This document shows positions 4,504 to 53,586 of a stretch of 55,778 nucleotides of DNA, in pieces (the stretch's first letter is position 1; each line of letters starts with the position of its first letter). The stretch is taken from positions 1-55,778 of the forward strand of contig JBBRFT010000001.1 in the NCBI GenBank assembly GCA_038241375.1, read 5' to 3'. The position numbers and the translations under genes were made by a program. The stretch is from Spirochaetota bacterium (lineage in GTDB: Bacteria > Spirochaetota > UBA4802 > UBA5550). Under the pieces are notes generated by a model, which searched no databases, was not told the DNA's origin, and worked only from the letters and a program-made list of their open reading frames with translations.

Positions 4504-4561
4504 TTATTTCTTCTCTATAATAGTTATTTTTAATATCAACATTTTATTTAAGTCCACCTCC

Positions 4562-22224: not shown

Positions 22225-24093
22225 CTATGATACTTTAAAAGTCATAATAAATTTTGTTCCTGCCCCACCTTCAATCACCATGTTTCCGCTTATCTGTTCG
22301 ATTAGCATATTTACAAGATTCAGGCCGAAACCTGTATCACCGTCACATTTTATATCTTCCGGCAATCCAATACCGTTATCCTCAACGATCAGGCAGGCCA
22401 TATCATCTTTCAGTGACATGGTTACATTAATTATCCCGTTGTCTCTCCCTACAAAAGCATGTTTCATAATATTTGTAAGCAGCTCATTGATAATAATTCC
22501 AAGAGGCGCCAACAGACTTACGTTGAGAATAAAATCTTCAATATCGGTATTCAGATTTACAATCTCCCGTTTCGGGAAGTTGCAGATTATCTCCTCTGTT
22601 AATGTCTGAAAATAATCTCTGACTGAAAGTTCCCTGTAATTCTCGGAACAATAGAGCTTGTCATATAAAATGATCATGCTCTGAATACGGTTTTCCACAT
22701 CCCCCAGCATCGGAGCATATGACTGATCGCTCAGGTTATTGATCTGAAGTGTAAGCAGTCCTTTGATGGTATTCATGTTGTTTTTAATGCGGTGGTGTAC
22801 CTCTTTAAGCAGCAGTTCTTTCTCTTTCAGAAGGTTATGTATCTTTTCTTCAGCAATTTTTCGGTCTGTGATGTTTTTTGTAAAACCAAGGTATCGTGTG
22901 TCTGAAAGTTTAACTCCGTCGACTGACCACCATCTTTTTTCACCGTCTTTATGGAGAAATTCAAACTCACTGCTTACGTGCCCGGTTTCTTTAAGCTTTA
23001 TAAAAACCTGCATATCTTTCCCGACAGTTTCAGAAGCCAGGAGATCGGGGATTGACATTGAGATGAGTTCTGCTTCGGTATACCCGGTTATTGCTGAAGC
23101 TGCTGGATTTACCTCGAGATATTTACCATTCTCATCCGCAACAAAGATTCCGTCTGGTGAATTGTCGATGTAACTGCGGAATTTAGCTTCACTCCGTTTG
23201 AGCAGCTCTTCGCGCTGAAAAATATCCGCAGTAGCGCGTTTGACTTTTATCCTTAAAAGAATTGTAAATGAAAAGAAAATAAAAGCAATTAATCCGAGAG
23301 CAGCGGCAGAATATTTGATCCATTGAGGAATGATCTCAATTGTTCCAACATTGCCATGCGACCATTTCTGACGCGATTTATTGAAAACTGAATTTTCCTG
23401 ATGTTTCCATTTATTAAGATAGCTGTCCAGAAGTTCAAGCAGTTCAGTGTTTTTACCATCTGCTGCGGCAAAATAAATATCAAAGGGACTAAATACAACT
23501 CCGGTTGACCGTATTCCGTATTCACTCTGTTTCGAAACTCCGTATGTGCAGTTTACTACACCGGCATCAGTTTTTTTGTCAGCAACAGCCTGGAATACTT
23601 CATCGAATGAGGCAAATTCAACTATTTCAACAACTATATGAAATTTTTTTACCATATCGATAAAATTATATGCATTGAAATCATTTTTCATTACAGCAAC
23701 TTTTTTTTCATTCATTTCTGTAATATTATCAATATCGGATTTAAGCGGAACATATAGTTCGCTCCAGACAGTGAGAAGAGGAGTTTTGCAGTAATCAAGG
23801 TAAAGAGCGCGTTCAGGAGTGTAAGCAACACTTGTGAGAATATCGACTTCTCCGGTTTTTATACGTTCTAAGCCCTCGCTCCATGAGCCCCAGATGTATT
23901 CAAAACGTATATTTTCCTTCGCGGCGATTTCCGCAAGGGAATCTACATAAAATCCTTTAATAACACCATCGGTATCCATAAATATTCCGGGGTAAAAGTT
24001 AAAAGCTCCGACTCGGACAACCCGCGGTTCAGCAGCGTATAATGAAATATGTATCAGAAAAAGTAAAACAACGGAAACAAATTTAATTTTCAT
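22225..24093 (-). CDS. Sensor histidine kinase: periplasmic solute-binding (SBP_bac_3-like) domain - TM - PAS - HisKA_2 - HATPase
   Basis: Signal peptide, an amino-acid-binding-protein-like domain, a PAS domain (GIFVADENGKYLEVNPA), the H-box HHRIKNNMN, and EDNGIGLP. Confidence 0.8.
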   Translation of the reverse strand: MKIKFVSVVLLFLIHISLYAAEPRVVRVGAFNFYPGIFMDTDGVIKGFYVDSLAEIAAKENIRFEYIWGSWSEGLERIKTGEVDILTSVAYTPERALYLDYCKTPLLTVWSELYVPLKSDIDNITEMNEKKVAVMKNDFNAYNFIDMVKKFHIVVEIVEFASFDEVFQAVADKKTDAGVVNCTYGVSKQSEYGIRSTGVVFSPFDIYFAAADGKNTELLELLDSYLNKWKHQENSVFNKSRQKWSHGNVGTIEIIPQWIKYSAAALGLIAFIFFSFTILLRIKVKRATADIFQREELLKRSEAKFRSYIDNSPDGIFVADENGKYLEVNPAASAITGYTEAELISMSIPDLLASETVGKDMQVFIKLKETGHVSSEFEFLHKDGEKRWWSVDGVKLSDTRYLGFTKNITDRKIAEEKIHNLLKEKELLLKEVHHRIKNNMNTIKGLLTLQINNLSDQSYAPMLGDVENRIQSMIILYDKLYCSENYRELSVRDYFQTLTEEIICNFPKREIVNLNTDIEDFILNVSLLAPLGIIINELLTNIMKHAFVGRDNGIINVTMSLKDDMACLIVEDNGIGLPEDIKCDGDTGFGLNLVNMLIEQISGNMVIEGGAGTKFIMTFKVS

Positions 24094-25986: not shown

Positions 25987-27087
25987 ATGGAACAAATACA
26001 ACCGCTTTTGAAAGAATATAAAATAGGAGACCTTACTCTTGCAAACAGAGTAGTAATGGCTCCGATGACTCGAAGCCGCGCAGATAATCCCGGCAACGTC
26101 GCGACTGATCTTATTGCTGACTATTATGTGCAGAGAGCTTCGGCAGGTCTTATAATATCTGAAGGTTCACAGATATCCAAACGTGCAGTGGGATACATCA
26201 ACACACCGGGGATTTACTCCGATGAACAGGTTGAGGGGTGGAAGAAGGTAACATCAGCAGTTCATGCCAATGGCGGGAAAATATTCATACAGCTGTGGCA
26301 TGTGGGACGCATGTCTCACCCGGATTTTCATAATGGAGAACTCCCTTTATCAGCCTCTGCATTTAATCCAAATTCAAAATCATATACTCCTCAGGGATTT
26401 AAAGATACTGTTGCACCAAAGGCTATGACAATTGATGAGATAAAGGAAACAATCCGCGATTACGGAAGAGCGGGTAAAAATGCCATGTCTGCAGGTTTTG
26501 ACGGAGTTGAGATTCACTCCTCAAACGGATATCTGCTTCACCAGTTTTTCAGCAGAACATCAAACATAAGAACTGATGAATACGGCGGGTCAATTGAAAA
26601 CAGAGCTAAAATACTATTTGAAGTAATAGATGAAATCAAAAAATATGTTCCTGAAAACCGCATTGGCCTGAGACTTAACCCTTCGCTGCATGGCGTCTTC
26701 GGGATGACATTAGACGAGGAAAGCATCCCTACTTTCGATTATATAGTAAAAAATCTAAACAATTATAAACTTGCTTATCTTCATCTTTCGGAGCCGTTTA
26801 CTGATGTGACAAATGTTCCCGGAGCAGAACCTCATATAGCGAAACATTACAGACCGATGTATAAGGGAACGCTTATGATAAATACAGCTTTCGACAGGGA
26901 GAAGGGAAATCAGGTCATCGAAGATGGACTTGCCGATCTTGTAGCCTATGGAAAACCTTATATATCCAATCCTGATCTTGTTGAAAGATTTGCGGCTGAA
27001 GCTGAAACAGCAATGTGGAATACGGACACCTTTTATACTACTGGACCTGTGGGTTTTACCGATTATCCGGCACTTAAAAAGTCTTAA
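25987..27087 (+). CDS. Old Yellow Enzyme family NADH:flavin oxidoreductase (NemA-like)
   Basis: LANRVVMAPMTR, QLWHVGR, GFDGVEIHSSNGYLLHQF and RTDEYGGS blocks. Confidence 0.9.
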   Translation: MEQIQPLLKEYKIGDLTLANRVVMAPMTRSRADNPGNVATDLIADYYVQRASAGLIISEGSQISKRAVGYINTPGIYSDEQVEGWKKVTSAVHANGGKIFIQLWHVGRMSHPDFHNGELPLSASAFNPNSKSYTPQGFKDTVAPKAMTIDEIKETIRDYGRAGKNAMSAGFDGVEIHSSNGYLLHQFFSRTSNIRTDEYGGSIENRAKILFEVIDEIKKYVPENRIGLRLNPSLHGVFGMTLDEESIPTFDYIVKNLNNYKLAYLHLSEPFTDVTNVPGAEPHIAKHYRPMYKGTLMINTAFDREKGNQVIEDGLADLVAYGKPYISNPDLVERFAAEAETAMWNTDTFYTTGPVGFTDYPALKKS

Positions 27088-28169: not shown

Positions 28170-28520
28170 TTATTTTATAGTCGTCTCAGATACTGCTGTT
28201 TCAGGAAGACTGCAGATTGAAGTAACGGTTAGCCTGTCACCCCTCTTCGCTTTGATTTTGAAAGTTAACAGCACAATATCACCCTTTTGTGAAGTCATGG
28301 TTTTTCGTACCTGTTCTTTGCCGTTTATATCCACTTTAACTAACTTGATAAAATGCTGTTTTTCATCTTTGTTTTTTGATGTGGAAATTGCATGATTGAC
28401 ATGCACTGTTAGTATTTGTGTTTTGGCATCATAATCGGTTTTAATCTCCGATGCCGGATGAGCAAAAAGCATGCTTAACGGGAAAATAAACAGTCCAACA
28501 AGAATTACTAATTTTTTCAT
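28170..28520 (-). CDS. Small secreted protein, paralogue 2 (116 aa)
   Basis: 29 differences in 116 residues from paralogue 1 by hand count. Same signal peptide and the same His/Cys positions. Confidence 0.7.
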   Translation of the reverse strand: MKKLVILVGLFIFPLSMLFAHPASEIKTDYDAKTQILTVHVNHAISTSKNKDEKQHFIKLVKVDINGKEQVRKTMTSQKGDIVLLTFKIKAKRGDRLTVTSICSLPETAVSETTIK

Positions 28521-30353: not shown

Positions 30354-30681
30354 CGTTTTCTCCTTTTAATGACCTTTGTTTCTTTATTATATACTTTACA
30401 AAGGAGAATTTCAATTTTATTGTAAAAGAAGAGACGAAATACGTACTGCAACTATGCTGACAATCTGCCAGTGTATTTTTGATTTAGACAGTATGGGCGA
30501 GACCCTCAAATTTTCGGTTGCTAACCAATTATTAATTGGTCAAGGTGATGAATGTCCTAATGTAGCAAGTGCACTCGACCTTCGGCAGTCCCCCTTGTGA
30601 GAGATGCAAATGAGCGGCCACAAACTATGAAAAAAATAGTAAAATAAATTAAAGAATTTTAAAAATATATCACAACAAGTG

Positions 30682-30833
30682 CTACTGTGATGCAGCTCCA
30701 GAAGCAATTCCCGTTTCAGCATGACCGCCTCCATCTGCACAAGCAGCAACAGCAAGACCAATTGTAACTCCTGCAAGTCCGCAGTGCCCTCTTCCAGAAT
30801 AAAGAAACCGGTACCGATAGTAACAGCCGCCAT
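30682..30833 (-). pseudogene. Frameshifted fragment paralogous to the C-terminal part of 42445-43005
   Basis: MAAVTIGTGFFILEE, then after a 1-nt shift GHCGLAGVTIGLAVAACADGGGHAETGIASGAASQ-stop. Compare MAVTISTGFFIPESGHCTLAGVTTGLAAATCVDG...ADGGAHVATGIASGAAF in the full-length gene. Confidence 0.55.
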
Positions 30834-30893
30834 CCGGGGCTAGTGATATAACTATTCCGGCAAAATCAGACTGGACCCGTTGCTGAATAACTG

Positions 30894-39629: not shown

Positions 39630-42347
39630 ATGAGTAATAAAATAAAGAAAAAACTATTCATACTGGACGGTCACGCCCTCTGTTACAGGGCGTATTTTGC
39701 ATTTATAAAGAATCCTCTTAAAAACTCTTCGGGACAGAATACATCTGCAATATTCGGTTTTGCCCGGATGATGTTTAAACTTATAAAAGAACAGAACCCT
39801 GACTACCTTGCAGTGGCATTTGACCCTCCGCAGAAATCCTTCAGATTCAAGCTTTACGAAGAGTATAAAGCAAACAGGGTAAAAATGCCCGATGACATGA
39901 GAAGCCAGATCGGTGAGATTAAGCGCATGGTGGAAACCCTGGGTATAACAACACTTGAGCATGCCGACTACGAGGCAGATGATGTACTCGGCACCGTCGC
40001 GGAGAAGTTTTCATCCGATGAACTGGAGGTCTACCTTGTAACAGGCGACAAAGACGCTTACCAGCTTGTAAAAAATAATGTACGCATATACGCAAACACA
40101 AAGGGAATTTCGGAGTACGAGATTTACGATGCAGAGGGTGTTTTAAATAAAGTCGGCCTGGGTCCCGATCAGATAATCGATTACATGGCACTAATGGGTG
40201 ATACATCGGATAATGTTCCCGGAGTTAAAGGTATCGGAGAGAAGACAGCACTTAAACTTATTACAGAGTATGGGACTCTCGAAAATATTTTCGAAAATGC
40301 AGAGTCAATCAAAGGTAAAACCGGTGAGATGCTGAGAACGGGAAAAGAGATGGCCTTCCTGAGCAGAGATCTTGTAACAATCAGAAGAGATGTCCCTCTC
40401 GATGCAGAACTTTCAGATATGAAATTCACTGAGATCGATCCTCAAACTGCTGTTGAATACTTCAACGGTATTGAGATGGAATCTGTTGCTAAAGATTTTT
40501 TCCAGGGAGTGAAATCTGAAAAAAAAATTTCCAGCATGGCAAGTACAAAGGAATATGTAACGATTAAAACAGAGAGTGAACTTAAACAGATGATCGAAGA
40601 GATCAGAAAAGCCGGCACGCTATCCTTCGATACAGAGACAGATTCAATCCACCCCGTGGAAGCTAATCTAGTAGGGATGTCTTTTTCCATCAGAGAGAAC
40701 AGCGGATGGTTCCTCCCTCTTCAGAGCCAGGGACTCTTCGGCGGCGATTACCCCGATCCGTCGATTTCACTCCCCCTTGTTAAACCGGTACTTGAAGATG
40801 AAAAAATAAAAAAAATCGGACAGAACATAAAGTTCGATCTTCTAGTACTTAAACGCGCGAAGATAGAACTCCGCGGAATATATTTTGACACCATGATAGC
40901 CTCATACCTTCTCAATCCCGCAGAGAGACGGCACAACATGGATGATCTCGCTGAAAAATATCTCAATTACAAAACTATAACATACAAAGAACTCACAGGA
41001 ACCGGGAAGAACGCAATCCCGCTTGCAGAAGTTCCTCTTGAAAAACTTGCAGAATACGCTACTGAAGACGCAGACATAACTTTCAGATTATATAAACTCT
41101 TTAAACCGATGCTTGAGAAAGAAAACCTCACTACCCTATTTGAAACAATCGAAATGCCTCTGCTTTCAGTACTTGCAGATATGGAGTATGCAGGGGTAAA
41201 AATTGACACAGCACATTTTGAGAAAATGAAAAAAACAATAGTAGAGAGAGTTAAAGAGGTAGAGAAACAGATCTATACCCTTGCCGGTCAGGAGTTCAAC
41301 ATCAACTCCACGAAGGAACTATCTTCTATTCTCTTTGAAAAACTGCAGCTGAAAACTGCGAGGAAAACCAAAACCGGATTCTCCACGGACATTCAGGTTC
41401 TTGAAACTTTAAAGGGGAGCCACAAAATCATTGACTACCTCATAGACTACAGAACGCTGAGTAAACTTCACAGTACATACATCGACTCTCTTCCGAAAAT
41501 GATAAGCAGATACACAGGGAGAATCCATACTTCGTACAACCAGACAATCGCCGCAACAGGGAGACTTTCATCAACAGATCCGAATCTCCAGAACATCCCT
41601 ATACGTGATGAATTCGGCGGACAGATCCGGAAGGGCTTCATTCCGGAGAAAGGTTTTCTCTTAATGTCAGCGGATTATTCACAGATTGAACTCCGCCTTG
41701 CCGCGCACTATTCAAATGATGCGAATATGATATCGGCATTCAGAGATAAAATCGACATTCACAGCATGACCGCCTCATCAGTCTTCGCTGTTTCTATAGC
41801 GGACATTACTCCCGATATGCGGAGACAGGCGAAGATTATAAACTTTGCCACAATATACGGAGTTTCACCATACGGGCTGTCACAGCAGGCAGAGATAGGG
41901 ATGAGAGATGCGGCTGAATTCATAAAAAAATATTTTGAAACATACCCGGGATTTCGCGACTATATCGATTCAACCATCGCATTCGCAAAAGAACACGGCT
42001 ATGTGCAGACACTCATGGGTAGAAAACGTCCCGTACCGGAGATAACATCCGAAACATCATTCCGGAGAGAGGGGGCTGAGCGCGCCGCAATAAATATGCC
42101 GATTCAGGGAACCTCTGCAGATATGATAAAAATCGCCATGATTAACATTCAAAATGAAATGATATCCGGAAAAATGAAATCCCGAATGATAATGCAGGTT
42201 CATGACGAACTGGTATTTGAAGTACACGAGGATGAAAAAACAGTGATGGAAGATATGATCCGTGATAAAATGGAGAATGCAATTAAACTGAATGTTCCGG
42301 TAATTGTTGAAATAGGTATAGGGAAGAACTGGGATGAAGCTCATTGA
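39630..42347 (+). CDS. polA: DNA polymerase I
   Basis: 905 aa. 5' nuclease (LILDGHALCYRAYFA, GDTSDNVPGVKGIGEKTA), 3'-5' exonuclease (FDTETDS), and polymerase motifs (DYSQIELR, RRQAKIINFATIYG, QVHDELVFE). Confidence 0.95.
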   Translation: MSNKIKKKLFILDGHALCYRAYFAFIKNPLKNSSGQNTSAIFGFARMMFKLIKEQNPDYLAVAFDPPQKSFRFKLYEEYKANRVKMPDDMRSQIGEIKRMVETLGITTLEHADYEADDVLGTVAEKFSSDELEVYLVTGDKDAYQLVKNNVRIYANTKGISEYEIYDAEGVLNKVGLGPDQIIDYMALMGDTSDNVPGVKGIGEKTALKLITEYGTLENIFENAESIKGKTGEMLRTGKEMAFLSRDLVTIRRDVPLDAELSDMKFTEIDPQTAVEYFNGIEMESVAKDFFQGVKSEKKISSMASTKEYVTIKTESELKQMIEEIRKAGTLSFDTETDSIHPVEANLVGMSFSIRENSGWFLPLQSQGLFGGDYPDPSISLPLVKPVLEDEKIKKIGQNIKFDLLVLKRAKIELRGIYFDTMIASYLLNPAERRHNMDDLAEKYLNYKTITYKELTGTGKNAIPLAEVPLEKLAEYATEDADITFRLYKLFKPMLEKENLTTLFETIEMPLLSVLADMEYAGVKIDTAHFEKMKKTIVERVKEVEKQIYTLAGQEFNINSTKELSSILFEKLQLKTARKTKTGFSTDIQVLETLKGSHKIIDYLIDYRTLSKLHSTYIDSLPKMISRYTGRIHTSYNQTIAATGRLSSTDPNLQNIPIRDEFGGQIRKGFIPEKGFLLMSADYSQIELRLAAHYSNDANMISAFRDKIDIHSMTASSVFAVSIADITPDMRRQAKIINFATIYGVSPYGLSQQAEIGMRDAAEFIKKYFETYPGFRDYIDSTIAFAKEHGYVQTLMGRKRPVPEITSETSFRREGAERAAINMPIQGTSADMIKIAMINIQNEMISGKMKSRMIMQVHDELVFEVHEDEKTVMEDMIRDKMENAIKLNVPVIVEIGIGKNWDEAH

Positions 42348-42444
42348 TGATGATACAGTATGGCTAACACAGTCTCCTTGATGATGACGTGGGTTATGGT
42401 GATAATGTTTCTTTTTAGGAAACTTCAATATAACACATAAAGTA

Positions 42445-43005
42445 TTAAAAATATATAACTCCCAGTGAGATTGTAAATGCGGCTCCCGAGGCGATACCTG
42501 TAGCAACATGCGCTCCGCCATCAGCCAGGGCAAGTGTTGTAACAAAACCTGCAGTTGCAAGAACTCCCAGTATTGCGTGAGTGTTGTATTTCCAGTCTCC
42601 TTCAGTTAAACTGATCAGTCCGCCATATTCATATATCCCGTCAACACAGGTTGCCGCTGCAAGCCCTGTTGTTACACCAGCTAATGTGCAATGGCCGCTT
42701 TCCGGAATGAAAAAACCGGTACTGATGGTGACAGCCATCATCCCGAGAGTACTCCACCCTAGAACTTTGTGCCAATTGATCTGAGAAGCATTATCAGAGT
42801 CAGAGGATGTTCCTGCAGTATTGATCACATCAGCATTATCTACTGCGGCGATATACATATAGCCGGTGTTGTAATTTAGAAAATCATTATCGCTCATGAC
42901 AATGCTTGAATTGTTCAGTTCAGATGCGGATAAGTTTAACGGGGAAAAAACAAAAAGAAAGATTACGGATACCATGATAATAATTATTTTAGATACAGTT
43001 TTCAT
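42445..43005 (-). CDS. Secreted/membrane hypothetical protein
   Basis: AGGAG RBS before the ATG at 43005, which I prefer to 43047. Signal peptide, then Gly/Ala-rich hydrophobic C-terminal helices. It has a pseudogene paralogue at 30682-30833. Confidence 0.6.
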   Translation of the reverse strand: MKTVSKIIIIMVSVIFLFVFSPLNLSASELNNSSIVMSDNDFLNYNTGYMYIAAVDNADVINTAGTSSDSDNASQINWHKVLGWSTLGMMAVTISTGFFIPESGHCTLAGVTTGLAAATCVDGIYEYGGLISLTEGDWKYNTHAILGVLATAGFVTTLALADGGAHVATGIASGAAFTISLGVIYF

Positions 43006-43075
43006 ATTAACTCCTGCATTTCTTTTCAGGAAACTGCGATATAACATATAAAGTTTTAACGTGACTTTCTGTGTT

Positions 43076-43260
43076 ATAAAGGATCATAATGAATTTTATC
43101 AGGATCTTCAACAAGTATCAAACTTTACAAAATGTCCTCTACAAGTCTCAGTTAATTAAATTTTGCACTTCGCGCAAATGTTAAAAAAACAACTTTCATT
43201 ATGATTGTAAATTAACAGCCAATTGAAAATTAAGTCAACACCTTTATCTTTTCTGAAATT
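43076..43260 (-). repeat. ~185-bp direct repeat, copy A
   Basis: Collinear with 49634-49820, roughly four fifths identical by eye with small indels. It contains a consensus promoter and the 26-nt box. Confidence 0.8.
43093..43121 (-). promoter_or_regulatory. Sigma70 promoter inside repeat A, reading toward 42445-43005
   Basis: Minus strand TTGATA, a 17-nt spacer (cttgttgaagatcctga), then TAAAAT. Confidence 0.6.
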
Positions 43261-43603
43261 TCTTCCAGTATTATCAGGGAAGGTTAAAAGAGCTGATTCC
43301 AAGGCCTTCCCGGGATCAGTACCAGGTGCCCCGGATAGGTCTATGGTCTACTGCGGCAAGTACGGCATCCTTCTGGATATTACGCCAAGCACAATGTAAC
43401 CGTTGTTTTCAACTGAGAATCTCAGCAGCACATCCGGGTTATTTCTGTATTTGTGATCCCGTGGTGAAGTTTACAATCAGATATGTGTTTTATAGTAATC
43501 GTTAATCTATATAAAATTAAAATTATTCAGAAAAAAAATGTCCCCCCTGATACTGCTCTTTTTTTTTAATTTTTTAAAATATTATAAGACCATAGATACA
43601 AGA

Positions 43604-43625
43604 GAGATTGAATATATTCAATCTC
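43604..43625. promoter_or_regulatory. Perfect 22-nt palindrome upstream of the island kinase
   Basis: GAGATTGAATA / TATTCAATCTC, nested inside outer complementary AAGACC ... GGTCTT. Confidence 0.4.
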
Positions 43626-43842
43626 AGGTCTTCTGCAGTTTTTTCTTTTTACAATAATGATATTCGGAGTTTCAATTCTGCTGAATAAATATGATGGTAC
43701 CTGTAATTATAATTATACCTTTTGTTTTTTATAAAACTGATAATACACTAACAGGTATTTTCATACATGGAGTTTATAACGGACCGGCTTTTGTTGCTGT
43801 CGCGATGGGAGTAATTAAGTGACTTATATTTAATATTGACAT

Positions 43843-45780
43843 ATGCTGAAGGCCCAAGCTTGTTGTTATTGTATATTTTTTAAGTCATTAAATCTAGTTA
43901 AGCATAAAAAAATAATTACTCAAAACAAAGTATATATGAAAAATGATGATTTTTTTCAAAAAATAGTCAGCCTTACCTCTGATATAATATGGGAGGTTGA
44001 TAAAAACTGGTGCTTCACTTCAATATCGGGAAAATTTAAAGAGTATATAGGTTATGCTGCTGATGAAGTTATAGGCAAAACTCTATTTTCTTTAATGCCC
44101 GGGAAAGAAGCGGAAAGACTCTCCATAATGTTTCACGAAATAACATCAAGAAGAGATTTTGTTACAGATGTTGAAATAAAGTTAATCAATGAAAAAGATA
44201 TTGTCAGCTATCTGAAGATAAATGCAATTCCTGTTTTCGATGAAAAAAATAATTTCAAAGGATACAAAGGCATTGCAAGAGATATAACTGATAAAAAAAA
44301 TATAGAAACAGCTTTAAAGATAAGTGAAAGACATCTCTTCACACTCATGAACAACCTCCCTGGAATGGCTTACAGAGGTCATTTCACCAATGATATTAAA
44401 AATAGTTTTAAAATGGATTTTGTAAGCGACGGATGTTATCAGCTGACAGGTTATACACCCTCAGATTTTATGGATATAGGATTATCGTCAGATTCTTTTA
44501 CACATCCCGAAGATACAAAAATGATTGATGAAACTATTTTAAAAGCTTTATCTGAAAAAAAACAGTTCGAGGTTCTCTACAGGATTATAACTGCTGATTC
44601 CATGCTAAAATGGGTAATGGCCAAGGGTTTCGGCATTTACAGCAAAGATAAACTTACAGGCATCGAAGGTTTTGCTTTCGATGTAACTGAAACAAGAGAT
44701 GCAATAAATTACGGCAGAATAAATGAAAACAGGTTCAGAAATCTTTTTGAAAAAAATCCGCAGGGCATTGCCTTAGGGGACAGAGACGGTTTTGTTATTA
44801 AGACAAATAAAGTCTGGAATAGAATGTTCGGCTATCCGGTCGATTATAAAGATAAAATTCATTTTACAGATTTAAGACAGGAGCAGGACAAAGAATCTGA
44901 TCTTCTGCTTTACAGATCTCTTTTTAAAGGAATAAATGAAACTTATAGGATTGAAAGACTTTCAGCCAAAAGTGATAGCACTACTTTCTGGTGCGATCTC
45001 ACTGTTGCATTGATAGAAGATCCAGAAGAAAAAGATATTTATGCAATAGGAATATATTCTGATATAACTGAAAGAAAAAATATTGAGGCTGAATTAAAAA
45101 GATTTCATGAAGAGCTGGAAATTCTCGTCTCAGAAAGAACAGAGGAGATAAACCGTCTGACTTTGCAGGTTATCAATTCGCAGGAGAATGAAAGGCAGAG
45201 AATTGCCATGGATCTCCATGACGGAGTCGGTCAGACTATCCTTGCTGCTAAGTATGCAATCAACAGCATAACAAGTGAAAACAGCAAAAACAAGACCCTT
45301 CTCGAACGCGGCAAACTTCTGATCGATATGGCCAGCCAGGAATTGCGGGAAGTCTATACCGGAATATACCCCTCCATGCTCAATGAGCTAGGACTGAATG
45401 ATACAATAAACTGGTTTATCAGAAATTTTCTTGAAACATCAGGGATTATAGTAAATCATAGAAATACTCTCATTACAAAGATATCACATAATTTATCAGT
45501 AAATATCTTCAGAATTATCCAGGAAATTTTCAACAATATAGTAAAACATTCCGAAGCACTATCAGTCGATGTTTCTTTGACTCAGACATTACAGTTTATT
45601 ATTATTGAGTTATCTGATGATGGAAAGGGATTTAATATTGAAGAAAGAAAAAAAACAAGCACAGGTGCAGGTCTTATTAACATACGACAAAGAGTTGAAC
45701 ACCTCAACGGTAATATTGAGATGGAATCCCTACCAGGACGAACCTGGATAAAAATTCAAATACCGATGGAAAAAGAATGA
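43843..45780 (+). CDS. Cytoplasmic multi-PAS sensor histidine kinase (HisKA_3 / NarX-type)
   Basis: About three PAS/PAC modules and a coiled coil. H-box ERQRIAMDLHDGVGQ, then HATPase (DDGKGF, GAGLINIRQR). The start may instead be the ATG at 43936. Confidence 0.85.
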   Translation: MLKAQACCYCIFFKSLNLVKHKKIITQNKVYMKNDDFFQKIVSLTSDIIWEVDKNWCFTSISGKFKEYIGYAADEVIGKTLFSLMPGKEAERLSIMFHEITSRRDFVTDVEIKLINEKDIVSYLKINAIPVFDEKNNFKGYKGIARDITDKKNIETALKISERHLFTLMNNLPGMAYRGHFTNDIKNSFKMDFVSDGCYQLTGYTPSDFMDIGLSSDSFTHPEDTKMIDETILKALSEKKQFEVLYRIITADSMLKWVMAKGFGIYSKDKLTGIEGFAFDVTETRDAINYGRINENRFRNLFEKNPQGIALGDRDGFVIKTNKVWNRMFGYPVDYKDKIHFTDLRQEQDKESDLLLYRSLFKGINETYRIERLSAKSDSTTFWCDLTVALIEDPEEKDIYAIGIYSDITERKNIEAELKRFHEELEILVSERTEEINRLTLQVINSQENERQRIAMDLHDGVGQTILAAKYAINSITSENSKNKTLLERGKLLIDMASQELREVYTGIYPSMLNELGLNDTINWFIRNFLETSGIIVNHRNTLITKISHNLSVNIFRIIQEIFNNIVKHSEALSVDVSLTQTLQFIIIELSDDGKGFNIEERKKTSTGAGLINIRQRVEHLNGNIEMESLPGRTWIKIQIPMEKE

Positions 45781-46442
45781 ATAAAATAAGCATATTCCTT
45801 GCCGATGATCATGTTATATTGAGAGAAGGATTAAAGCATATATTACTGGAAGATAACAGCATTGAGATTATCGGTGAAGCAGGAGACGGCAGAGAAGCCC
45901 TTGAAAAAATTGATAAACTGAAACCCGATATTGCCATACTCGACATATCCATGCCCACACTCTCCGGGCTTGAAGCCGCGAGAGTTATCCGCAAATATAA
46001 TAAAAACATTAAACTGATTATTCTTACCCGCCATGATAATGAAGAATACGTTCATCAGGCTATTAAAAACGGAGTTAATGGCTTTATACTAAAAGACAGT
46101 GCCGGCGATGACCTTTTAAAAGCGGTAAGAGATGTCATGAACGGCAACATTTATCTCAGTCCGAAGATAGTGACAAATATTGTTAAATCAGGAATGGCTG
46201 AACCAGGCAGTAAAGACAGAATAAAGTTAAAATCTGAAAAAAAAGAACTGCTGACAAATAGAGAGAAAGAAGTGCTCAAGCTTGTAGCAGAAGGTAAATC
46301 AAGCAACGACATTGCTGCACTGCTCAAAATATCTCCTAAAACCGTAAAGGTCCACCGTCTCAATATAATGAATAAACTTGATATACGCAACATAACTGCA
46401 CTTGTAAAGTATGCAATCAAATCCGGCATGATTGATATTTAA
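45777..46442 (+). CDS. NarL/FixJ-family response regulator (REC + LuxR HTH)
   Basis: FLADDH, ILDISMP, then LTNREKEVLKLVAEGKSSNDIAALLKISPKTVKVHR. ATGA overlap with the kinase gene. Confidence 0.9.
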   Translation: MNKISIFLADDHVILREGLKHILLEDNSIEIIGEAGDGREALEKIDKLKPDIAILDISMPTLSGLEAARVIRKYNKNIKLIILTRHDNEEYVHQAIKNGVNGFILKDSAGDDLLKAVRDVMNGNIYLSPKIVTNIVKSGMAEPGSKDRIKLKSEKKELLTNREKEVLKLVAEGKSSNDIAALLKISPKTVKVHRLNIMNKLDIRNITALVKYAIKSGMIDI

Positions 46443-46610
46443 TCTGGTTTGCAAACTAAGTACATGGTAGTAGCTATAACTCATAATAAATAAGCACCGT
46501 ATCATAGACTTTTAGTACTTTTACCATATTTACAGATTTAACCGCATATTATATACACAAGCTATGAAAAGTAATGCATTTTCTTACTTAACAATAGAAC
46601 AGGTAAAAAT

Positions 46611-48326
46611 ATGAACTGGTTTAAAAATCTCCGTGTTGCGTACAAAATTTTAATAAGCTGCTCCATTCTAATACTGATGCTTATTGCTGTTGTTTTCTTT
46701 TCGGTCACTTCAATGATGAAAATTGAACACACCGTCAAAGATTTTACCATCAATAGCGTCATGCCGGTTATTAAGATGGACAGTATTGCAAAGAATCTTC
46801 TTCAAGGAAGAATTAACATGTATGCAGTCTACTTTTTAGCTGCAGACAAAGATAAAGCTGGAATTGAAAGTCTTCAGCAGGAATCTCTTCTGATAAGGGA
46901 AGATAATGTTAAAATTTTAAAGTTTCTTAAAGAACGATCAATGACTGAAGCTGAAAAGAATCTCACAGATAAATATGAAAAACTCCATATAGAACTCGGA
47001 TCTATAATGAAAAATTACCTGGAAACCCTTGCAACGGGGGATAAGTTAAAAATAACAGCTGCGATGAACGCATGGGTCGACAAGTATCAAGTTGTAAAAG
47101 ATACCCTCAATGAACTTCATAGTGAAACCATGAAAACCGGATCAGACAAAATCACAAGTGAATTTGGACAAATGAAACTTATAACTATTTATATGTTTAT
47201 CATCATGCTATTCTCGGTAATTGCAGGAATTTTTATTACCGTAAGGCTAAGCAGGTCTATTTCAGGACCCGTAAAGCAGGGACTCGATTTTGCCATGAAA
47301 CTGGCAGTGGGAGATTTCACAGGAAGGATTAACCTCGATCAGACTGATGAACTTGGAATGCTTGCTCGGGCCCTGAATGATGCTGCAGACAAACTCGAAA
47401 ATACTGTTACTGAAATAATCGGCGCATCGAACAACCTTGCACAGGCGGTTGAACAGATTGCTTCAGGCAACCAGAACCTTTCACAGCGCACAAGTGAACA
47501 GGCAAGCGCACTTGAAGAAGTTGCAGCAACAATTGAAGAAGCCAATTCATCAATAAATCAGAATTATGAAAACTCCATACAGGCAAACAGGATGTCAGAA
47601 TCATCATCTGCTATTGCTGTAAACGGCGGAGAACTTGTTGGTGAAGCGGTACAATCAATAAATGAAGTTAATGCAAGCGCAAAAAAAATCGGCGAAATTA
47701 CAACAGTTATAAATGAAATCGCTTTTCAGACAAACCTGCTTGCGCTCAATGCAGCAGTTGAAGCTGCAAGGGCTGGAGAACAGGGACGCGGATTTGCAGT
47801 CGTAGCGGGTGAGGTAAGAAACCTTGCACAGCGCGCGGGCAACGCTGCGAAAGAGATCGCCAACCTTATCCATGACACTGTCACAAAAGTTGAAAACGGC
47901 ACTGAAAAAACATATAAAAGCGGTGAGTCTCTAAGGGAGATAATAGAGTCTGTTAAAAACGTTGCGAAAGTTGTAAGCGAAATCGCTGCATCTTCAAACG
48001 AACAGAGACAGGGCATGGATCAGATTGCCACTGCAATTTCAGATCTGGACTCGATGACGCAGCATAATGCCGCCCTTGTTGAAGAGACTGCAGCAGCAAG
48101 CGAAGAGATGGCAAATCAGTCGCAGGAACTGATGAGCCTTATGACACAGTTTAAAATAAGAACTGAAATAAAACAGTCAAAAACGGAAACACTTCAAAAG
48201 CCGGCCGTTAGAACAATTAATAGTAAAACCAATATGGCCGGCGGAAACGGAAAGGATAAGACAGTTGCACATGGTAAAGAAAATAAATCCGAGACGTTTG
48301 AAAATGAAGGATATGAAAGGTTCTAA
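46611..48326 (+). CDS. Methyl-accepting chemotaxis protein (TM - sensor - TM - HAMP - MA domain)
   Basis: Highly conserved hairpin region [40 protein letters not shown]. Confidence 0.9.
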
Positions 48327-48398
48327 AGCCGTATTGGCATAAACAGATATTTCAGCTGCTGATATTTTAAATCAGATTTAACTAACACGAGGTTCAAA

Positions 48399-48902
48399 AT
48401 GCGGGATGTGCTTGAGAGAAAAGATATAAAACACAAAATGTCGGACACAACAAGTCAAATGTATGTAACCTTTAAGATTGATGATGAAACTTACGGTATA
48501 GATGTCAATCGCGTACAGGAAATTATCGGAATAATACCGATATCACATATTCCCAATGCAGCGGATTACTTGAAAGGTGTAATCAATTTAAGGGGAAAAG
48601 TCGTTCCGGTAATTGATGTCAGAGTAAAATTCAGGATGAACACAAGAAATTATGATTCGACAACGGTTATACTTATAGTTGAATTAAAAGATAGTTCAAT
48701 CGGCCTTATAGTCGATTCAGTAGCTGATGTAATAGATATTTCATCGGAATCAATTCATGATTATTCCGGGGTTGATGCAAAAATGAAATCCGGATCTATT
48801 ACCTCCATTGCAAGCTATAATGACAACCTTATACTTTTACTCGATCTTGATGAAATGATTGAGTACGAAGAAATCTTATCTGTTGAATTACCGCAGGATT
48901 AA
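48399..48902 (+). CDS. cheW: Chemotaxis coupling protein CheW
   Basis: YGIDVNRVQEI, GVINLRGKVVPVIDVR and GLIVDSVADV blocks. Confidence 0.9.
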   Translation: MRDVLERKDIKHKMSDTTSQMYVTFKIDDETYGIDVNRVQEIIGIIPISHIPNAADYLKGVINLRGKVVPVIDVRVKFRMNTRNYDSTTVILIVELKDSSIGLIVDSVADVIDISSESIHDYSGVDAKMKSGSITSIASYNDNLILLLDLDEMIEYEEILSVELPQD

Positions 48903-48922
48903 ATTCAAGGTTATATAATACT

Positions 48923-49372
48923 ATGGAATCTAAACAGAAAACCATACTTTTAGTTGAAGACCAGATTGTTGCCGCTGCGCCTGTAATTAATATTTTAAAA
49001 AATTCCGGTTATAACCCCATTTATGTTATGCGGGGCGAGGACGCTGTAAATATTATAGAAACCGGAACACTAATTGATGTTATTGTAATGGATATTGATC
49101 TGGGTCCTGGAATCTGTGGTATAACTGCTTTTGAGCAGATTAATTCAATTCGTCAATTGCCGGTATTATTCTTCACCAGTCATCCTGAGGAAATTATTAA
49201 AGAAAGAACCGGCGAAATACATTATTTAAACTACTTATCAAAAAAAAGTGCATTAGCATCACTGGTGATGTCTATTGAGAAAACATTTTTTTCTTTTAAT
49301 TTTTTACATGAGATAAGTACGGAATTTCATGATATAAAACCATCCTTAATAAATATACCGCAAAAGGATTGA
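48923..49372 (+). CDS. Receiver-domain protein (CheY-like, divergent)
   Basis: ILLVEDQ, VIVMDIDL, FFTSH and YLSKK occupy the receiver motif positions. The C-terminus is atypical. Confidence 0.7.
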   Translation: MESKQKTILLVEDQIVAAAPVINILKNSGYNPIYVMRGEDAVNIIETGTLIDVIVMDIDLGPGICGITAFEQINSIRQLPVLFFTSHPEEIIKERTGEIHYLNYLSKKSALASLVMSIEKTFFSFNFLHEISTEFHDIKPSLINIPQKD

Positions 49373-49392
49373 TCACTCTGAACTCCCGCTAA

Positions 49393-49569
49393 ATCAAAAC
49401 AGGTTTAATACAACACCATACTCCGGCACATAGACTGGAACTTCAGGATATTTTTTTTTCATGACTTCCGCAAATTCCGATGTATCAACATCCATACTTC
49501 CCAGATGAAGTATTTCCTTTCCGGAGCATTTTACATGATAGACAAATACCGGACCGCAAATATAATCCA
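49393..49569 (-). CDS. Possible small ORF (58 aa) downstream of the repeat-B promoter
   Basis: Hand translation gives MDYICGPVFVYHVKCSGKEILHLGSMDVDTSEFAEVMKKKYPEVPVYVPEYGVVLNLF. There is no Shine-Dalgarno site, and it is below the track cutoff. Confidence 0.3.
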
Positions 49570-49633
49570 TGTGAATTTTATTGATTAAAAAAACTGCGTT
49601 AAAACTGTAGAGTTTTTACATAAAATCTCTACA

Positions 49634-49820
49634 GATAAAGGATCATAATGAATTTTATCCGGATCTTCAACAAGTAACAAACTTGACAAAATGTCCACTA
49701 CAAGTCTCAGTTAATTAAATTTTGCGATTCGCGCTATTGTTAAAAAAACAGCATTTCCTATGATTGCATACTTACATCCATTAAATAAATTAAGTCAACA
49801 CCTTTATATCTTCTAAAATT
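49634..49820 (-). repeat. ~185-bp direct repeat, copy B
   Basis: See copy A. Confidence 0.8.
49651..49679 (-). promoter_or_regulatory. Sigma70 promoter inside repeat B
   Basis: Minus strand TTGTTA, a 17-nt spacer, then TAAAAT. Confidence 0.55.
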
Positions 49821-50154
49821 TGAAAATTTTTCAAGGAGATCTTACCTGTTTTGCAAACGGCTTAAAATACCCGCCGATTATAACATGCGTTTAGCGAGCA
49901 TCTTAATCGCGTTATCAGCAGGTCATAAATATACCATATCTTTAATCATATATTTTAAACAATCGGGGTAGACTTCCGGATTTTTTTGAAATGAATTTTC
50001 AATTGCTTTTACCCAGGTTCGTGTTTCAATTTTTTTTATTTTTTCATCGATTTCGTGAGCCCAGGTACCACTTTTTTGACACAAAAGTGATGTCCGATAC
50101 GACAGTGGTTCGAGGGTCTCACCAGCCGAACTGCAGAGTTCGAAACATTTTTTT

Positions 50155-50405
50155 ATGTTTATGGTAAAAGAGTTTCAAAACAAAAAGAGAATGCAATAAG
50201 AACAACCGGAAAGCCCAGAGTACAACGAGCAGAAGCCGATAATGCAGGTTCATGACGAACTTGTATTTGAAGTGTACGGGGGTGAGTAAACAGTATGGAG
50301 GATATGACCCTTGATAAAATGAAGAATGCGATTAAACTGAATAAAATTGCTCCCCGCCGCGCATTCGGAATCCAGGAAAAGATTCCGACGATTTTGTTAA
50401 TAATA
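50155..50405 (+). pseudogene. Decayed relic of a polA 3' end
   Basis: It reads ...MVKEFQNKKRMQ-stop-EQPESPEYNEQKPIMQVHDELVFEVYGGE-stop, then after a 1-nt deletion MEDMTLDKMKNAIKLN, a 39-nt GC-rich insert, and IPTILLI. The intact polA reads MQVHDELVFEVHEDEKTVMEDMIRDKMENAIKLNVPVIVEI. Confidence 0.75.
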
Positions 50406-50418
50406 TTTATTCCTCAAA

Positions 50419-51123
50419 TTACTTCTTCCAGGCGTAAATCACCACACTCTTCGGAAAAAAATAATTTACAAAAAGTTCCGCCTTCCGCATAAACTTCGAA
50501 AAGAGCCCCAGAGTCAAAAATTTATGGTACCCCTTCGTCATGGGATGTTCCGCGTTATTAAGTCCCACAACACATCTGATAATCCACCAGATCGTATGAA
50601 AAGAATGCTTAAAACCGACAGCATATACTTCAAGACCGTTCTTCCGCATAATCTCCGCAAGCTCTGAAGGGAAATATTTCCTGACGTGACCGCCCGGCGA
50701 TGTAAAATATTCATACGTCAATGTGTCATATATTATCTCGCTGAAAAATGTCGGAACAGTAATTGCAATTCTTCCGTTTGTCTTAAGAACTCTTGCCAGT
50801 TCCGAGCAGGCCTTGAAATCGTCATCAACATGTTCCATAACTTCTGAACATATTATCCGGTCAAAAGTTCCAGTTTTAAATGGAAGGTTAAGAGCGTCAC
50901 CTACATGAGTTACGAAACTCGCACCCTCCGGCGATCCGCCGCTCTGCTTCATACTGGCAAGCGTATAGCGTGTCTTCAGAAGAGATCCGATATCAAGATC
51001 CATACAGAACACCGATGCGCCGCGTCTCATAAATTCAATTGAGTGCCTTCCGAGCCCGCATCCGGCATCGAGAACAACATTTCCTTTCTGAACTGCCAGC
51101 CTGTCAAAATCAACTGTGAGCAT
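50419..51123 (-). CDS. Class I SAM-dependent methyltransferase
   Basis: VLDAGCGLGRHS motif I and FDRIICSEVMEHV. I prefer the ATG at 51123 (MLTVDFD...) to the Arg-rich extension from 51186. Confidence 0.85.
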   Translation of the reverse strand: MLTVDFDRLAVQKGNVVLDAGCGLGRHSIEFMRRGASVFCMDLDIGSLLKTRYTLASMKQSGGSPEGASFVTHVGDALNLPFKTGTFDRIICSEVMEHVDDDFKACSELARVLKTNGRIAITVPTFFSEIIYDTLTYEYFTSPGGHVRKYFPSELAEIMRKNGLEVYAVGFKHSFHTIWWIIRCVVGLNNAEHPMTKGYHKFLTLGLFSKFMRKAELFVNYFFPKSVVIYAWKK

Positions 51124-52348
51124 CGATAACCCCCTTGTACATCTCTTCCATCTCCCGCGCCGCGTTCTCCCAGGTGAAGACTTCAAGGATTCTTTTACGC
51201 GCGGCTTTACCCATCTTTTCCCGGATATGGGGGTTATCTATAAAGAAATCTATCGCCTCTGCAAGCGCGTAGGGATCTCTCGATTTAACAACATAACCTG
51301 TTTTCATATGTTCACCAACAACTTCAGGGAGAGCCCCTCCGTCTGATGAAATAAGCGGAAGTTCGCAAGCCATTGCTTCAGCTGCAGGGAAACCGAATCC
51401 TTCGTACAATGAAGGTGAAACCGCAATCTGATGCTGCGAATAAAGCTCTATAAGTTTTTCACCCGGAATCTTCCCGGTAAAATGCACACGGTCATTAATT
51501 CCGAAATTATCGATCCATTTTGTAACATAACGCCTGTTAGGAGCTCCACCGTCAACGACAGTGAGATGAACTTTATTTTTAGTAAGAGTGAGCGCCTTGA
51601 GCAGATAAACAACGCCCTTCTTCCTGTCTTCAACATTACCGACAAAAATAAGACTGTTCTCTTTTTTCTTAACTCCCGGCAAAGGCCTGAATATACTGGT
51701 GTCGAGCCCGTTATACACAACACTCATCTTCTCCGGCTTAACACTAAAAGCTTTAGCAATCTCAACCTTCGCATCGTGAGAAACTGTAAGAATATGATCC
51801 ATCCGTCTTGCAACAAAACCCTGCATAATCAGCGGATAATAGAGAACTCTCTTAACTTTAAGAAGAAAATCCGAGGGATACTCAAACCATGTAGTCCGGT
51901 CAATCGACAGAGGGTGATGTATTGTCGAAATAAACGGCACACCAAAATTCTTGATAAGAAGAAAACCATATCCAAGACTCTGATTGTCATGTATAACATC
52001 GAATTTGTGTGTTTTCAAAAGCTCTTTAAGTTTAAAATACGCACGGAAAGAGAAAGTCTCAATCTCGGGAAATATCCCGAGTTTTGACGCGACAAACTCA
52101 TAAAAATTTAAAGGCTTCAGTGTCGCGAAGGGTTTGTGAGGTTTTATATAATTAGTTTTATTATTAAAATAGTTATGGTTGCTCACGTAATGGATGTGAA
52201 CGCCCTCCATTGGAGGGAAATAGGGCGGCCCCTGTATAACATGAACTTCATGACCAAGCTTCACCAGTTCGCGGGCGATATACATTGTGTAAATCCCCTG
52301 GCCTCCGCAGTATGGATTACCTCTATATGTAAGCAGACAGATCTTCAT
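51110..52348 (-). CDS. GT4-family (GT-B) glycosyltransferase, paralogue 2
   Basis: N-terminus YRGNPYCGGQGIY. C-terminal EGFGFPAAEAMA (EX7E region). Confidence 0.85.
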   Translation of the reverse strand: MKICLLTYRGNPYCGGQGIYTMYIARELVKLGHEVHVIQGPPYFPPMEGVHIHYVSNHNYFNNKTNYIKPHKPFATLKPLNFYEFVASKLGIFPEIETFSFRAYFKLKELLKTHKFDVIHDNQSLGYGFLLIKNFGVPFISTIHHPLSIDRTTWFEYPSDFLLKVKRVLYYPLIMQGFVARRMDHILTVSHDAKVEIAKAFSVKPEKMSVVYNGLDTSIFRPLPGVKKKENSLIFVGNVEDRKKGVVYLLKALTLTKNKVHLTVVDGGAPNRRYVTKWIDNFGINDRVHFTGKIPGEKLIELYSQHQIAVSPSLYEGFGFPAAEAMACELPLISSDGGALPEVVGEHMKTGYVVKSRDPYALAEAIDFFIDNPHIREKMGKAARKRILEVFTWENAAREMEEMYKGVIDAHS

Positions 52349-53586
52349 ACTCTGCTCCTGTATTCCTTAATTACATCTTTATAAACTTCAAGTGTATTCT
52401 TTGCTGCAACGGACCAGGCAAAGTTATCAACAGCCCATTTACGCCCGTTTTTACCCATCTTTTCACGCATTTTTTTATTCTTCAGAAGTTTCATAATCCC
52501 GTCTTTCAGTGCCACAGGATCCATGGGGGGAACAAGTATTCCACAGTCGGGCGACACAACCTCTTTGAGCGAACCGGCTGTAGTAACCACAACTGGAGTC
52601 TGACACGACATAGCCTCAACTGCTGGAAGTCCGAAACCCTCGAAAAGTGACGACATTACAAGAATAGTTTTACGGCTGTACATGCTGACAAGCTGATCAT
52701 AGCTCAGCTTCCCGGTAAACTTAACTCTGTGTCCTAGATTATACTTTTTGATAAGGTCACCTGCAGTCATCTTCTTCGGAGGTCCGTCATCAACGATTGT
52801 AAGCGTAACCTCTTCAGGAAGCATTGTCATCGCTTCGAAGAGATAGACAAGTCCCTTCTTTGTATCCTCGGTGTTCCCGACAAAGAGAAGAGCATTCTCC
52901 TCTCTCGGTTCGCCGGTATTCTGAAACATATCAACATCCATACCGTTGTAGACAACGGAGACTCTCTCTTTCTTAACCCTGAAAGCTTTCTTCAGCTCAT
53001 CTACACCTTCATGGAATGAAGTAATAATTCTGTCGATTCTCCTGATTACAAAGCCCTGCATAACAAGCGGATAGAAAAGAATCGTTGTAGTCTTATCCCA
53101 GATTCCCCAGTTCCTCTGCAGATCAGCCTCCCTGTCTTTAGTAAGAGGGTGATGAACCGTAGTCACGATGGGGATTCCGTAACCCTTCATAGGAACCGTT
53201 GCCCATCCGAGAGATTGTATATCATGAATAAGATCATATCTTTTTGTTTTTAGAATCTTCTCCAGAGCAAAGAAAGCCCTGAAACTGAATGTCTCCATCT
53301 CGGGAAAGAGATGAAGCCGTGTTAAAACATAATCGATAAAGTTCCATGGAGAGAGTATTCTCTTCAATTTTTCAAGCGGGATATCTTTCGTCTTGATTGA
53401 CCACATATTAAGATTCTCGATTTTGTAGACTGTCGCCCATTCTTCAAGAGGATCGGGATATGGAGGACCCACCATGACGTCCACGGTCACACCGAGCTTC
53501 GCAAGCTCTTTTGAAAGATTGTAAATGTATATCCCCTGCCCTCCGCAGTAGGGATTACCTCGATAACCAAGAATTAAAACTCTCAT
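52345..53586 (-). CDS. GT4-family (GT-B) glycosyltransferase, paralogue 1
   Basis: N-terminus YRGNPYCGGQGIY. C-terminal EGFGLPAVEAMS. 4-nt overlap with the next gene. Confidence 0.85.
   Translation of the reverse strand: MRVLILGYRGNPYCGGQGIYIYNLSKELAKLGVTVDVMVGPPYPDPLEEWATVYKIENLNMWSIKTKDIPLEKLKRILSPWNFIDYVLTRLHLFPEMETFSFRAFFALEKILKTKRYDLIHDIQSLGWATVPMKGYGIPIVTTVHHPLTKDREADLQRNWGIWDKTTTILFYPLVMQGFVIRRIDRIITSFHEGVDELKKAFRVKKERVSVVYNGMDVDMFQNTGEPREENALLFVGNTEDTKKGLVYLFEAMTMLPEEVTLTIVDDGPPKKMTAGDLIKKYNLGHRVKFTGKLSYDQLVSMYSRKTILVMSSLFEGFGLPAVEAMSCQTPVVVTTAGSLKEVVSPDCGILVPPMDPVALKDGIMKLLKNKKMREKMGKNGRKWAVDNFAWSVAAKNTLEVYKDVIKEYRSRV

Follow-up and report, generated by a model that had tools for sequence, protein, structure and literature searches.

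A strain-variable interval downstream of polA in an uncultured spirochaete, with nested direct repeats and a pseudogenised polA fragment

Strain-variable hotspots without mobile elements have been described, and homologous recombination is raised in the core genes that flank them (Oliveira et al. 2017, PMC5635113). Minimal mobile elements, defined in Neisseria (Saunders & Snyder 2002; Snyder 2007, as cited in PMC3787668), are exchanged by a double crossover in the flanks and without duplication. Here we describe a site in a 55,778-nucleotide (nt) contig from an uncultured member of the Spirochaetota (the whole contig is called the window below), where an interval of about 8 kb separates an intact polA gene from a methyltransferase gene and two adjacent GT4 glycosyltransferase genes. 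The interval carries five signalling genes, several pairs of direct repeats and a short relic of polA. We lean towards the view that it is a hotspot of recombination like those called minimal mobile elements, in which insertions are driven by homology and leave duplications of their target. The locus is a further example of the known strain-variable hotspots and reveals no new system.

Like minimal mobile elements and other integrase-free hotspots, the site has a fixed position between conserved genes, holds varying cassettes or nothing and, in the window, has no mobility genes; its polA flank may show signs of recombination, as do the flanks of integrase-free hotspots. Unlike minimal mobile elements, it contains target duplications, including a partial copy of a flanking core gene, and its hosts are uncultured spirochaetes.

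A complete and a 5'-truncated copy of a gene, in direct orientation around an insert, are the textbook product of a single crossover with a circle that carries a fragment of that gene, and specialised transducing DNA gives something similar in the classical heterogenotes. Such a pair, with long repeats whose arbitrary length depends on how far the homology extends, surrounds an insert at the corresponding site of OW818666, a complete chromosome from a metagenome, and this arrangement is plausibly the ancestor of the polA relic in the window. Transformation-triggered merodiploids arise by alternative pairing of repeats, a related product being formed when partly repeated donor DNA pairs in this way between sister chromosomes, and in pneumococcus they are tandem duplications of 100-900 kb between repeats derived from insertion sequences (Johnston et al. 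2013, PMC3784515). The insertions at the spirochaete site are of 6-11 kb, and the duplications, unlike those of Campbell-type integrants and merodiploids, are old and eroded.

The third comparison is with genomic islands, integrative and conjugative elements (ICEs) and prophages that occupy the 3' ends of genes; Tn5253, which reportedly integrates in rbgA, is an example of an element in the 3' end of a protein-coding gene. As in those cases, a direct repeat from the 3' region of a housekeeping gene bounds the inserted DNA, the gene remains intact and empty sites exist. The differences are that the interval has no integrase or excisionase gene, that the repeat stops short of the end of the gene, that the boundaries vary and that the cargo is a normal signalling operon. 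In the literature that we found (the search was not exhaustive), polA is not described as an integration target.

The variable site and its flanks

About 50 loci, cited here by L numbers, were fetched by scans with PolA and the methyltransferase. The relatives, which are metagenome-assembled genomes, bear the names Spirochaetota, Spirochaetia or Leptospirales, and close relatives are those whose PolA is at least 90% identical. The left flank of the site is polA itself (39630-42347, plus strand, 905 amino acids (aa)), identified from its open reading frame (ORF) and from the Pfam PolA domains of homologues. The right flank (50419-53586, minus strand), identified with Pfam, comprises genes for an S-adenosylmethionine (SAM) methyltransferase (50419-51123) and two GT4 proteins (51110-52348 and 52345-53586). 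These flanks are conserved at 85-90% nucleotide identity. The right flank is 89% identical to those of L003 and OW818666, the window and L003 encode methyltransferases that are 100% identical, and PolA is 93-94% identical at the protein level to its counterparts in L001/L003.

An earlier note on this DNA had suggested that related genomes be aligned to find an empty site in which polA abuts the methyltransferase/GT operon. Six relatives have one (L008, L019, L020, L027, L028 and L030): polA and the methyltransferase gene are convergent, with their stop codons 1-6 nt apart. These are more distant relatives, with PolA 70-78% identical. Because empty sites exist in these six genomes, the window carries an insertion of roughly 8 kb relative to the ancestral arrangement.

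Among close relatives, and counting that of the window, seven contents were found between the polA and methyltransferase/GT4 flanks, each unlike the others, in addition to the empty sites. In L003, and in genomes nearly identical to it here, the site holds a 506-aa ORF. L042 has a toxin-antitoxin pair (DUF2281/PemK), and L039 has this pair together with 8.4 kb in which IS66 and Y1-transposase fragments occur alongside an omptin gene and others. L049 carries a SpoIIE phosphatase, and OW818666 carries A2M, PBP1C and sulfatase genes, then a second polA copy and then SpoIIE. The contig of L016 ends before any polA; its site holds a 606-aa ORF and a homologue of ORF186, a small-protein gene of the window, which is 77% identical over 375 nt and adjoins the methyltransferase gene in the opposite orientation. 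The L016 methyltransferase is 94% identical to that of the window. The signalling cargo of the window occurs at the polA site in no other of the approximately 50 loci fetched, and the right-end pieces of the window interval are matched separately in L039, L042 and OW818666. A further arrangement was noticed in L021 (2716-4191), where a polA-methyltransferase gap of 1.5 kb has a 218-nt tandem repeat (97%) and 247-nt inverted repeats (89%) and is unlike the content of every other relative.

The polA flank may have a history of its own. Over the last ~300 nt of the gene, the window and L042 are 89.7% identical, against 79-83% to the others, whereas the rest of the gene groups differently among the few genomes compared. 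This discordant grouping would fit recombination running through the polA flank. L042 is the nearest relative of the polA 3' end (42100-42347, about nt 2400-2718 of the gene), unlike the remaining gene, and a hypervariable patch is present at polA nt 2521-2550, just before the left boundary of the repeat that is described next.

The polA relic and nested direct repeats

A 106-nt repeat in the window is a pseudogenised polA fragment. The resident segment (repeat A, polA nt 2559-2664, aa 853-888) is at 42188-42293 and the relic (A') at 50238-50342, both on the plus strand. They are identical at 93 of 106 positions (87.7%), with 12 mismatches and one 1-nt gap (blastn E-value: 7e-33 locally, 8e-31 in a self-search of 25.8 kb). 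The in-frame TAA (GAA AAA changed to GAG TAA) and the 1-nt deletion that had been noticed in the relic were both confirmed, and its two boundaries are sharp. Where the last ~160 nt of polA had been said to recur, nt 2559-2664 do so, but the relic has neither the final 54 nt nor a copy of the stop codon.

Two proposed extensions of the relic did not hold. On the right, weaker similarity had been thought to continue to about 50405 around a 39-nt insert; as a continuation of polA, this DNA is not above chance (shuffle p 0.13-0.34). The stretch 50343-50409 (plus strand) is instead a decayed, GC-rich, palindromic, terminator-like element, in which a T-run comes after a hairpin at 50365-50388. This element is homologous to the polA-methyltransferase spacer of L042 (12930-12999; score 28 against a shuffle maximum of 21, p<0.0004) and to OW818666 26002-26038, behind the second polA copy (p 0.002). 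On the left, the supposed translation of a PolA palm region upstream of 50238 was not recovered: tblastn with PolA gave nothing left of MQVHDE, the nucleotide comparison was at chance (shuffle p 0.54) and no Pfam match was obtained in six frames.

Palindromes of this type, GC-rich with a UUCG-type loop and A-run/T-run flanks, stand in AT-rich intergenic DNA and resemble bidirectional terminators. Besides 50343-50409 of the window, they were seen at L042 12907-12991 and in the merged OW818666 locus at 4485-4559, 8440-8577, 28270-28408 and 25990-26060. The L042 palindrome is absent at the same spot of L039 and has a ACTTTAAAA-like repeat on both sides, and judged by such sequence features the palindromes might be small mobile elements. 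As an abundant repeat the motif was not found in the window, where it is present in a single copy.

From left to right, the interval consists of A, a 41-nt repeat, ORF186, the second 41-nt repeat together with repeat B, the signalling module, B', spacer pieces, A' and the palindrome, after which comes the methyltransferase gene; the A, B and 41-nt pairs are all in direct orientation. The 41-nt pair (42408-42448, plus strand, and 43019-43059; 36/41 identical, score 31 against a shuffle mean of 9.1 and maximum of 19) brackets the ORF186 gene, and the right end of its first copy overlaps the ORF186 stop codon. Repeats B (43019-43261) and B' (49568-49821), both on the plus strand, have 187-nt cores that are 87% identical (43076-43261 and 49635-49821) and a weaker extension leftwards to 43019 and 49568, which in B includes the second 41-nt copy. 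This pair (187-245 nt), which like the 41-nt pair is new relative to the earlier note, is nested within A/A', and B' closes the unit by which the five-gene signalling module is bracketed. The left part of B matches L042 12713-12868, DNA that begins at the L042 polA stop codon, and part of B' (49568-49659) matches L042 12713-12801; by these alignments, B derives from the spacer directly after polA in L042. Between B' and A' lie a segment (49882-50054, plus strand) common to L039 (21161-21405, 83-84%) and in part to L042 (12862-12884), and a non-coding segment that we call seg (50074-50179, plus strand), which is 80-81% identical to OW818666 (merged locus 23685-23787). What had been described as a single 8-kb element is in fact a nested mosaic with 41-nt, 187-245-nt and 106-nt repeat pairs. 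A weak match to CRISPR-DR65 inside B (E-value: 0.07) was dismissed, as B has only two copies, 6.5 kb apart. A phage origin of B or seg was also rejected, as scans of viral contigs with seg and the B cores gave nothing or chance 20-mers.

In OW818666, polA is followed by 11.1 kb and then by a direct copy that begins at polA nt 586 and continues for 13 nt beyond the stop codon. This duplicate of 2143 nt is 98.7% identical to the full gene; the two copies diverge right after those 13 nt, and the 11.1 kb between them is not itself duplicated. The copies differ at 28 of 2143 positions, and 24 of the 28 differences are synonymous. With four outgroups, the private changes number three nonsynonymous and two synonymous in the truncated copy, which seems relaxed, and one and four, respectively, in the full gene, which seems constrained; small as these numbers are, they fit a young, unconstrained duplicate. 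As separate observations, 14 synonymous changes are clustered in a 127-nt patch (polA nt 1797-1923), and the second copy (approximately 3297575-3299720 of OW818666.1, in L001+L007; L007 10001-12146) has an intact, "Klenow-like" ORF of 665-672 aa that keeps the 3'-5' exonuclease and polymerase domains without the 5'-nuclease domain.

These junctions and the order of the repeats bear on a purely local rearrangement, in which a tandem duplication of the polA 3' end and spacer, or template switching during replication that placed short polA and spacer filler pieces at deletion or insertion junctions, would have produced the repeats, and no foreign DNA would have entered by recombination at polA. 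Such a process would explain why every repeat is direct and comes from DNA close by (polA and the spacer after it), why the fragments are short and sharply bounded, and why the composition is native. A tandem duplication, however, predicts the order A, B, A', B', and the order found is A, B, cargo, B', A'; in OW818666, the 11.1 kb between the copies is unduplicated and divergence begins 13 nt after both stop codons. The tandem-duplication model was rejected on these two grounds. Moreover, the signalling module is absent from the site in all relatives and no protein of the OW818666 chromosome is among the 120 best matches to its methyl-accepting chemotaxis protein (MCP), so genes new to the site must have come in. 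Local rearrangement alone is in our judgement very improbable.

The second polA copies of the window and OW818666 share their surroundings. Seg is 58 nt upstream of the window relic and 44 nt upstream of the truncated OW818666 copy, and seg, polA fragment and GC palindrome follow each other in the same order and orientation in both; the two linkers that separate seg from the polA fragment are not related to each other and contain no trace of polA. A third fragment of 57 nt (ITPDMRRQAKIINFATI, aa 726-744, 18/19 identical) is present at L039 20441-20497 and L040 16442-16498. In L039 it is direct, 7.7 kb downstream of polA and in frame inside a called 213-aa HATPase_c_4 ORF. When each locus was scanned with its own PolA, extra polA pieces were found only in these three lineages of a tight clade and in none of about 20 other loci. 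Their break points are at polA nt 586 (OW818666), 2176/2232 (L039/L040) and 2559/2664 (window). The window relic is nearest to the window's own polA, with which it has derived bases in common, as it does with L042; its identity to OW818666 is only 80%.

That each extra copy is nearest to its own polA (98.7% in OW818666, 88% in the window) would be expected if the copies had independent origins, that is, if a mechanism specific to this clade repeatedly copied part of polA upon insertion of DNA downstream, with seg as incoming DNA or as a preferred junction. The differing break points and unrelated linkers speak for the same explanation, as does the instability of a 2.1-kb direct repeat, by which the OW818666 copy is probably young. 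Set against this are the common order of seg, polA fragment and GC palindrome in the window and OW818666, and the restriction of the fragments to one tight clade, which a single origin with subsequent erosion and loss explains equally well; no carrier element was identified either, the viral contig scans having returned only chance 20-mers. We consider independent origins unlikely, if well short of negligible.

The recombinase question and the assembly of the interval

Transposases make short duplications of fixed length, and integrases act on short core sequences and come with a recombinase gene. The earlier note had recognised no integrase, and our searches agree: by Pfam and NCBIfam, every ORF in 42348-50418 belongs to another family or to none, and no recombinase was found. 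The junction-proximal DNA at 43270-43470 and 49830-50237 had been thought to look like decayed coding sequence. Six-frame Pfam searches of 43050-43850 and 49370-50240 gave nothing at E ≤ 1, and the best pseudo-ORF of the junction regions had no homologue among 5.8 billion proteins. No transposase was found in the window and no inverted repeats at the ends of the interval. A transposon or insertion sequence was rejected on the lack of a transposase and of inverted repeats, and on the duplications, which are of 41-245 nt and unequal. Searches for a tRNA, tmRNA or Rfam family, as target or as cargo, were negative.

The earlier note had interpreted the locus as an integrative element that carried a polA 3' fragment as its attP and recombined with the host gene, restoring it and leaving the displaced 3' end at the far junction, next to the methyltransferase gene. 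In such a model of a site-specific element (a genomic island or a degenerate prophage or ICE), the displaced end would be attR and the recombinase gene would have been lost later. A direct repeat of the polA 3' region does bound the inserted DNA, empty sites exist, IS66 and Y1-transposase fragments are present at the same site in L039, and an element that brought its own 3' end could account for the discordance of the last 300 nt of polA. We nonetheless think this explanation improbable for four reasons. First, no recombinase or remnant of one was found in any frame. Second, the repeat falls 54 nt short of the polA stop codon, the relic and the methyltransferase gene are not directly adjacent, and relic and resident copy are of the same allele class. 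Third, the interval is a nested mosaic and not one unit, the cargo is found at this site in no second genome, and its G+C content is native. Fourth, the 2143-nt duplication of OW818666, which starts at polA nt 586, is implausible as an att site. The related claim that the relic is the displaced original terminus beside its original neighbour is not supported either: the terminus is missing, a spacer element stands before the methyltransferase gene and seg precedes the relic.

Host homologous recombination is favoured because the duplications are long and variable (41 to 2143 nt) and no recombinase is present. On the homology-driven reading that we prefer, and to judge from the anatomy of the locus, the window version would have been built by at least three nested insertions, each bracketed by a duplication of its landing sequence: 41 nt around ORF186, ~190-245 nt (B/B') around the module and, outermost, the polA 3' region. 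The relic is most likely the remainder, after deletions, of a larger 5'-truncated second polA copy such as is still found in OW818666, from which two deletions, of ~2 kb on the left and ~95 nt on the right, could have produced it. It looks like the residue of such a copy, and not like a clean attR, because the terminus is missing, because the spacer lies before the methyltransferase gene and because seg also precedes the truncated OW818666 copy. By one route, circular or partly homologous incoming DNA would have integrated through a single ("Campbell-type") crossover; by another, unequal exchange would have taken place between sister chromosomes. Deletion, and exchange from strain to strain through the conserved flanks, may have followed.

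Several points weigh against this reading. The single-crossover step is one that we infer purely from the arrangement of the copies. The 8.4 kb that L039 has relative to L042 are without flanking direct repeats, and duplicative insertion is not the rule at the site, since insertions in other relatives also lack flanking repeats. As the relic is only 80% identical to OW818666 and nearest to its own polA, descent of the relic and the OW818666 copy from a common ancestor would require concerted evolution, or else the events were independent; the polA break points (nt 2559 versus 586) differ and the seg linkers are unrelated. L042 has a B-like spacer and a hairpin and no polA fragment, so it is not a simple recombination product of polA and a second copy. 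Finally, the duplication in OW818666 comes from a metagenome assembly and is to that extent provisional. It is also conceivable, although we rate it as rather unlikely, that hotspots are filled in addition by recombinase-free, homology-targeted circles or by one-ended recombination, of which the polA copies and nested duplications would be the footprints and seg the closing joint.

If the homology-driven reading is correct, the locus would be a natural example of a hotspot between two core genes that turns over without a dedicated recombinase. Some insertions would then duplicate their target, and the defunct remnants of an essential gene could serve as markers from which to reconstruct the order of events; the locus would also bear on the spread of accessory signalling modules among uncultured bacteria. 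To judge from the partial copies of this essential gene in the flank, hotspots of this kind may be filled by a duplicative route as well as by the usual double crossover. The locus also carries a warning, as a repeat of a gene's 3' end that bounds foreign-looking genes is insufficient to call an integrative element.

The signalling module and neighbouring features

The signalling cargo and the convergent methyltransferase gene named in the earlier note were confirmed by Pfam, with all matches in the module above the gathering thresholds. Its five genes, all on the plus strand, encode a sensor kinase with three PAS domains, HisKA_3 and HATPase (43936-45780; also supported by NCBIfam), a NarL/LuxR-type response regulator with REC and GerE domains (45777-46442), an MCP with 4HB_MCP, HAMP and MCPsignal domains (46611-48326), CheW (48399-48902) and a stand-alone, CheY-like receiver (48923-49372). 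The mechanical ORF of the kinase begins at 43843; the start was set at 43936 by colinearity with L047. Upstream of the kinase gene and downstream of B is an AT-rich non-coding stretch in which no gene remnant is recognisable (43262-43935; G+C content 0.27-0.35), and about 1 kb of non-coding DNA lies between the receiver gene and the methyltransferase gene.

All five genes are colinear with L047 7291-12602 (71% nucleotide identity over 5.4 kb), where the unit sits among other signalling genes and without B repeats. MCP, CheW and receiver genes also occur together at an unrelated metabolic locus (L046), in the genome to which L002 belongs, and the best MCP homologues, 68-77% identical, are all from Spirochaetota. 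A G+C profile of the cargo, which the earlier note had suggested as a check, showed no anomaly: G+C content is 0.33-0.40 and G+C content at third codon positions 0.27-0.36, the range for genes of the contig being 0.39 +/- 0.035. Because it is a conserved unit elsewhere in the Spirochaetota and its G+C content is native, the module is judged to be a signalling operon of an ordinary spirochaete kind, accessory in this clade and not foreign in composition. The intact genes presumably give the lineage an accessory chemosensory and two-component pathway.

ORF186 (42445-43005, minus strand) encodes a small protein that has a signal peptide, is hydrophobic in its C-terminal half and matched no family in Pfam or NCBIfam. 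Its mechanical ORF extends to 43047, and the start at 43005 has AGGAG 7 nt upstream. A decayed and frameshifted paralogue of this membrane-protein gene is present at 30540-30835 (minus strand), with 74% nucleotide identity over 85 nt to 42659-42743. Promoter-like sites occur on the minus strand at matching positions in B (43121 to 43093) and B' (49652-49680). The site in B, in which 17 nt separate TTGATA from TAAAAT and a TG lies upstream of the latter, faces ORF186, and the site in B' faces only a 58-aa ORF without known family (49394-49570). In the right flank, the adjacent GT4 genes have a 40-nt stretch in common that is 90% identical (52289-52328 and 53527-53566), as in OW818666, and the two genes are probably old tandem paralogues.

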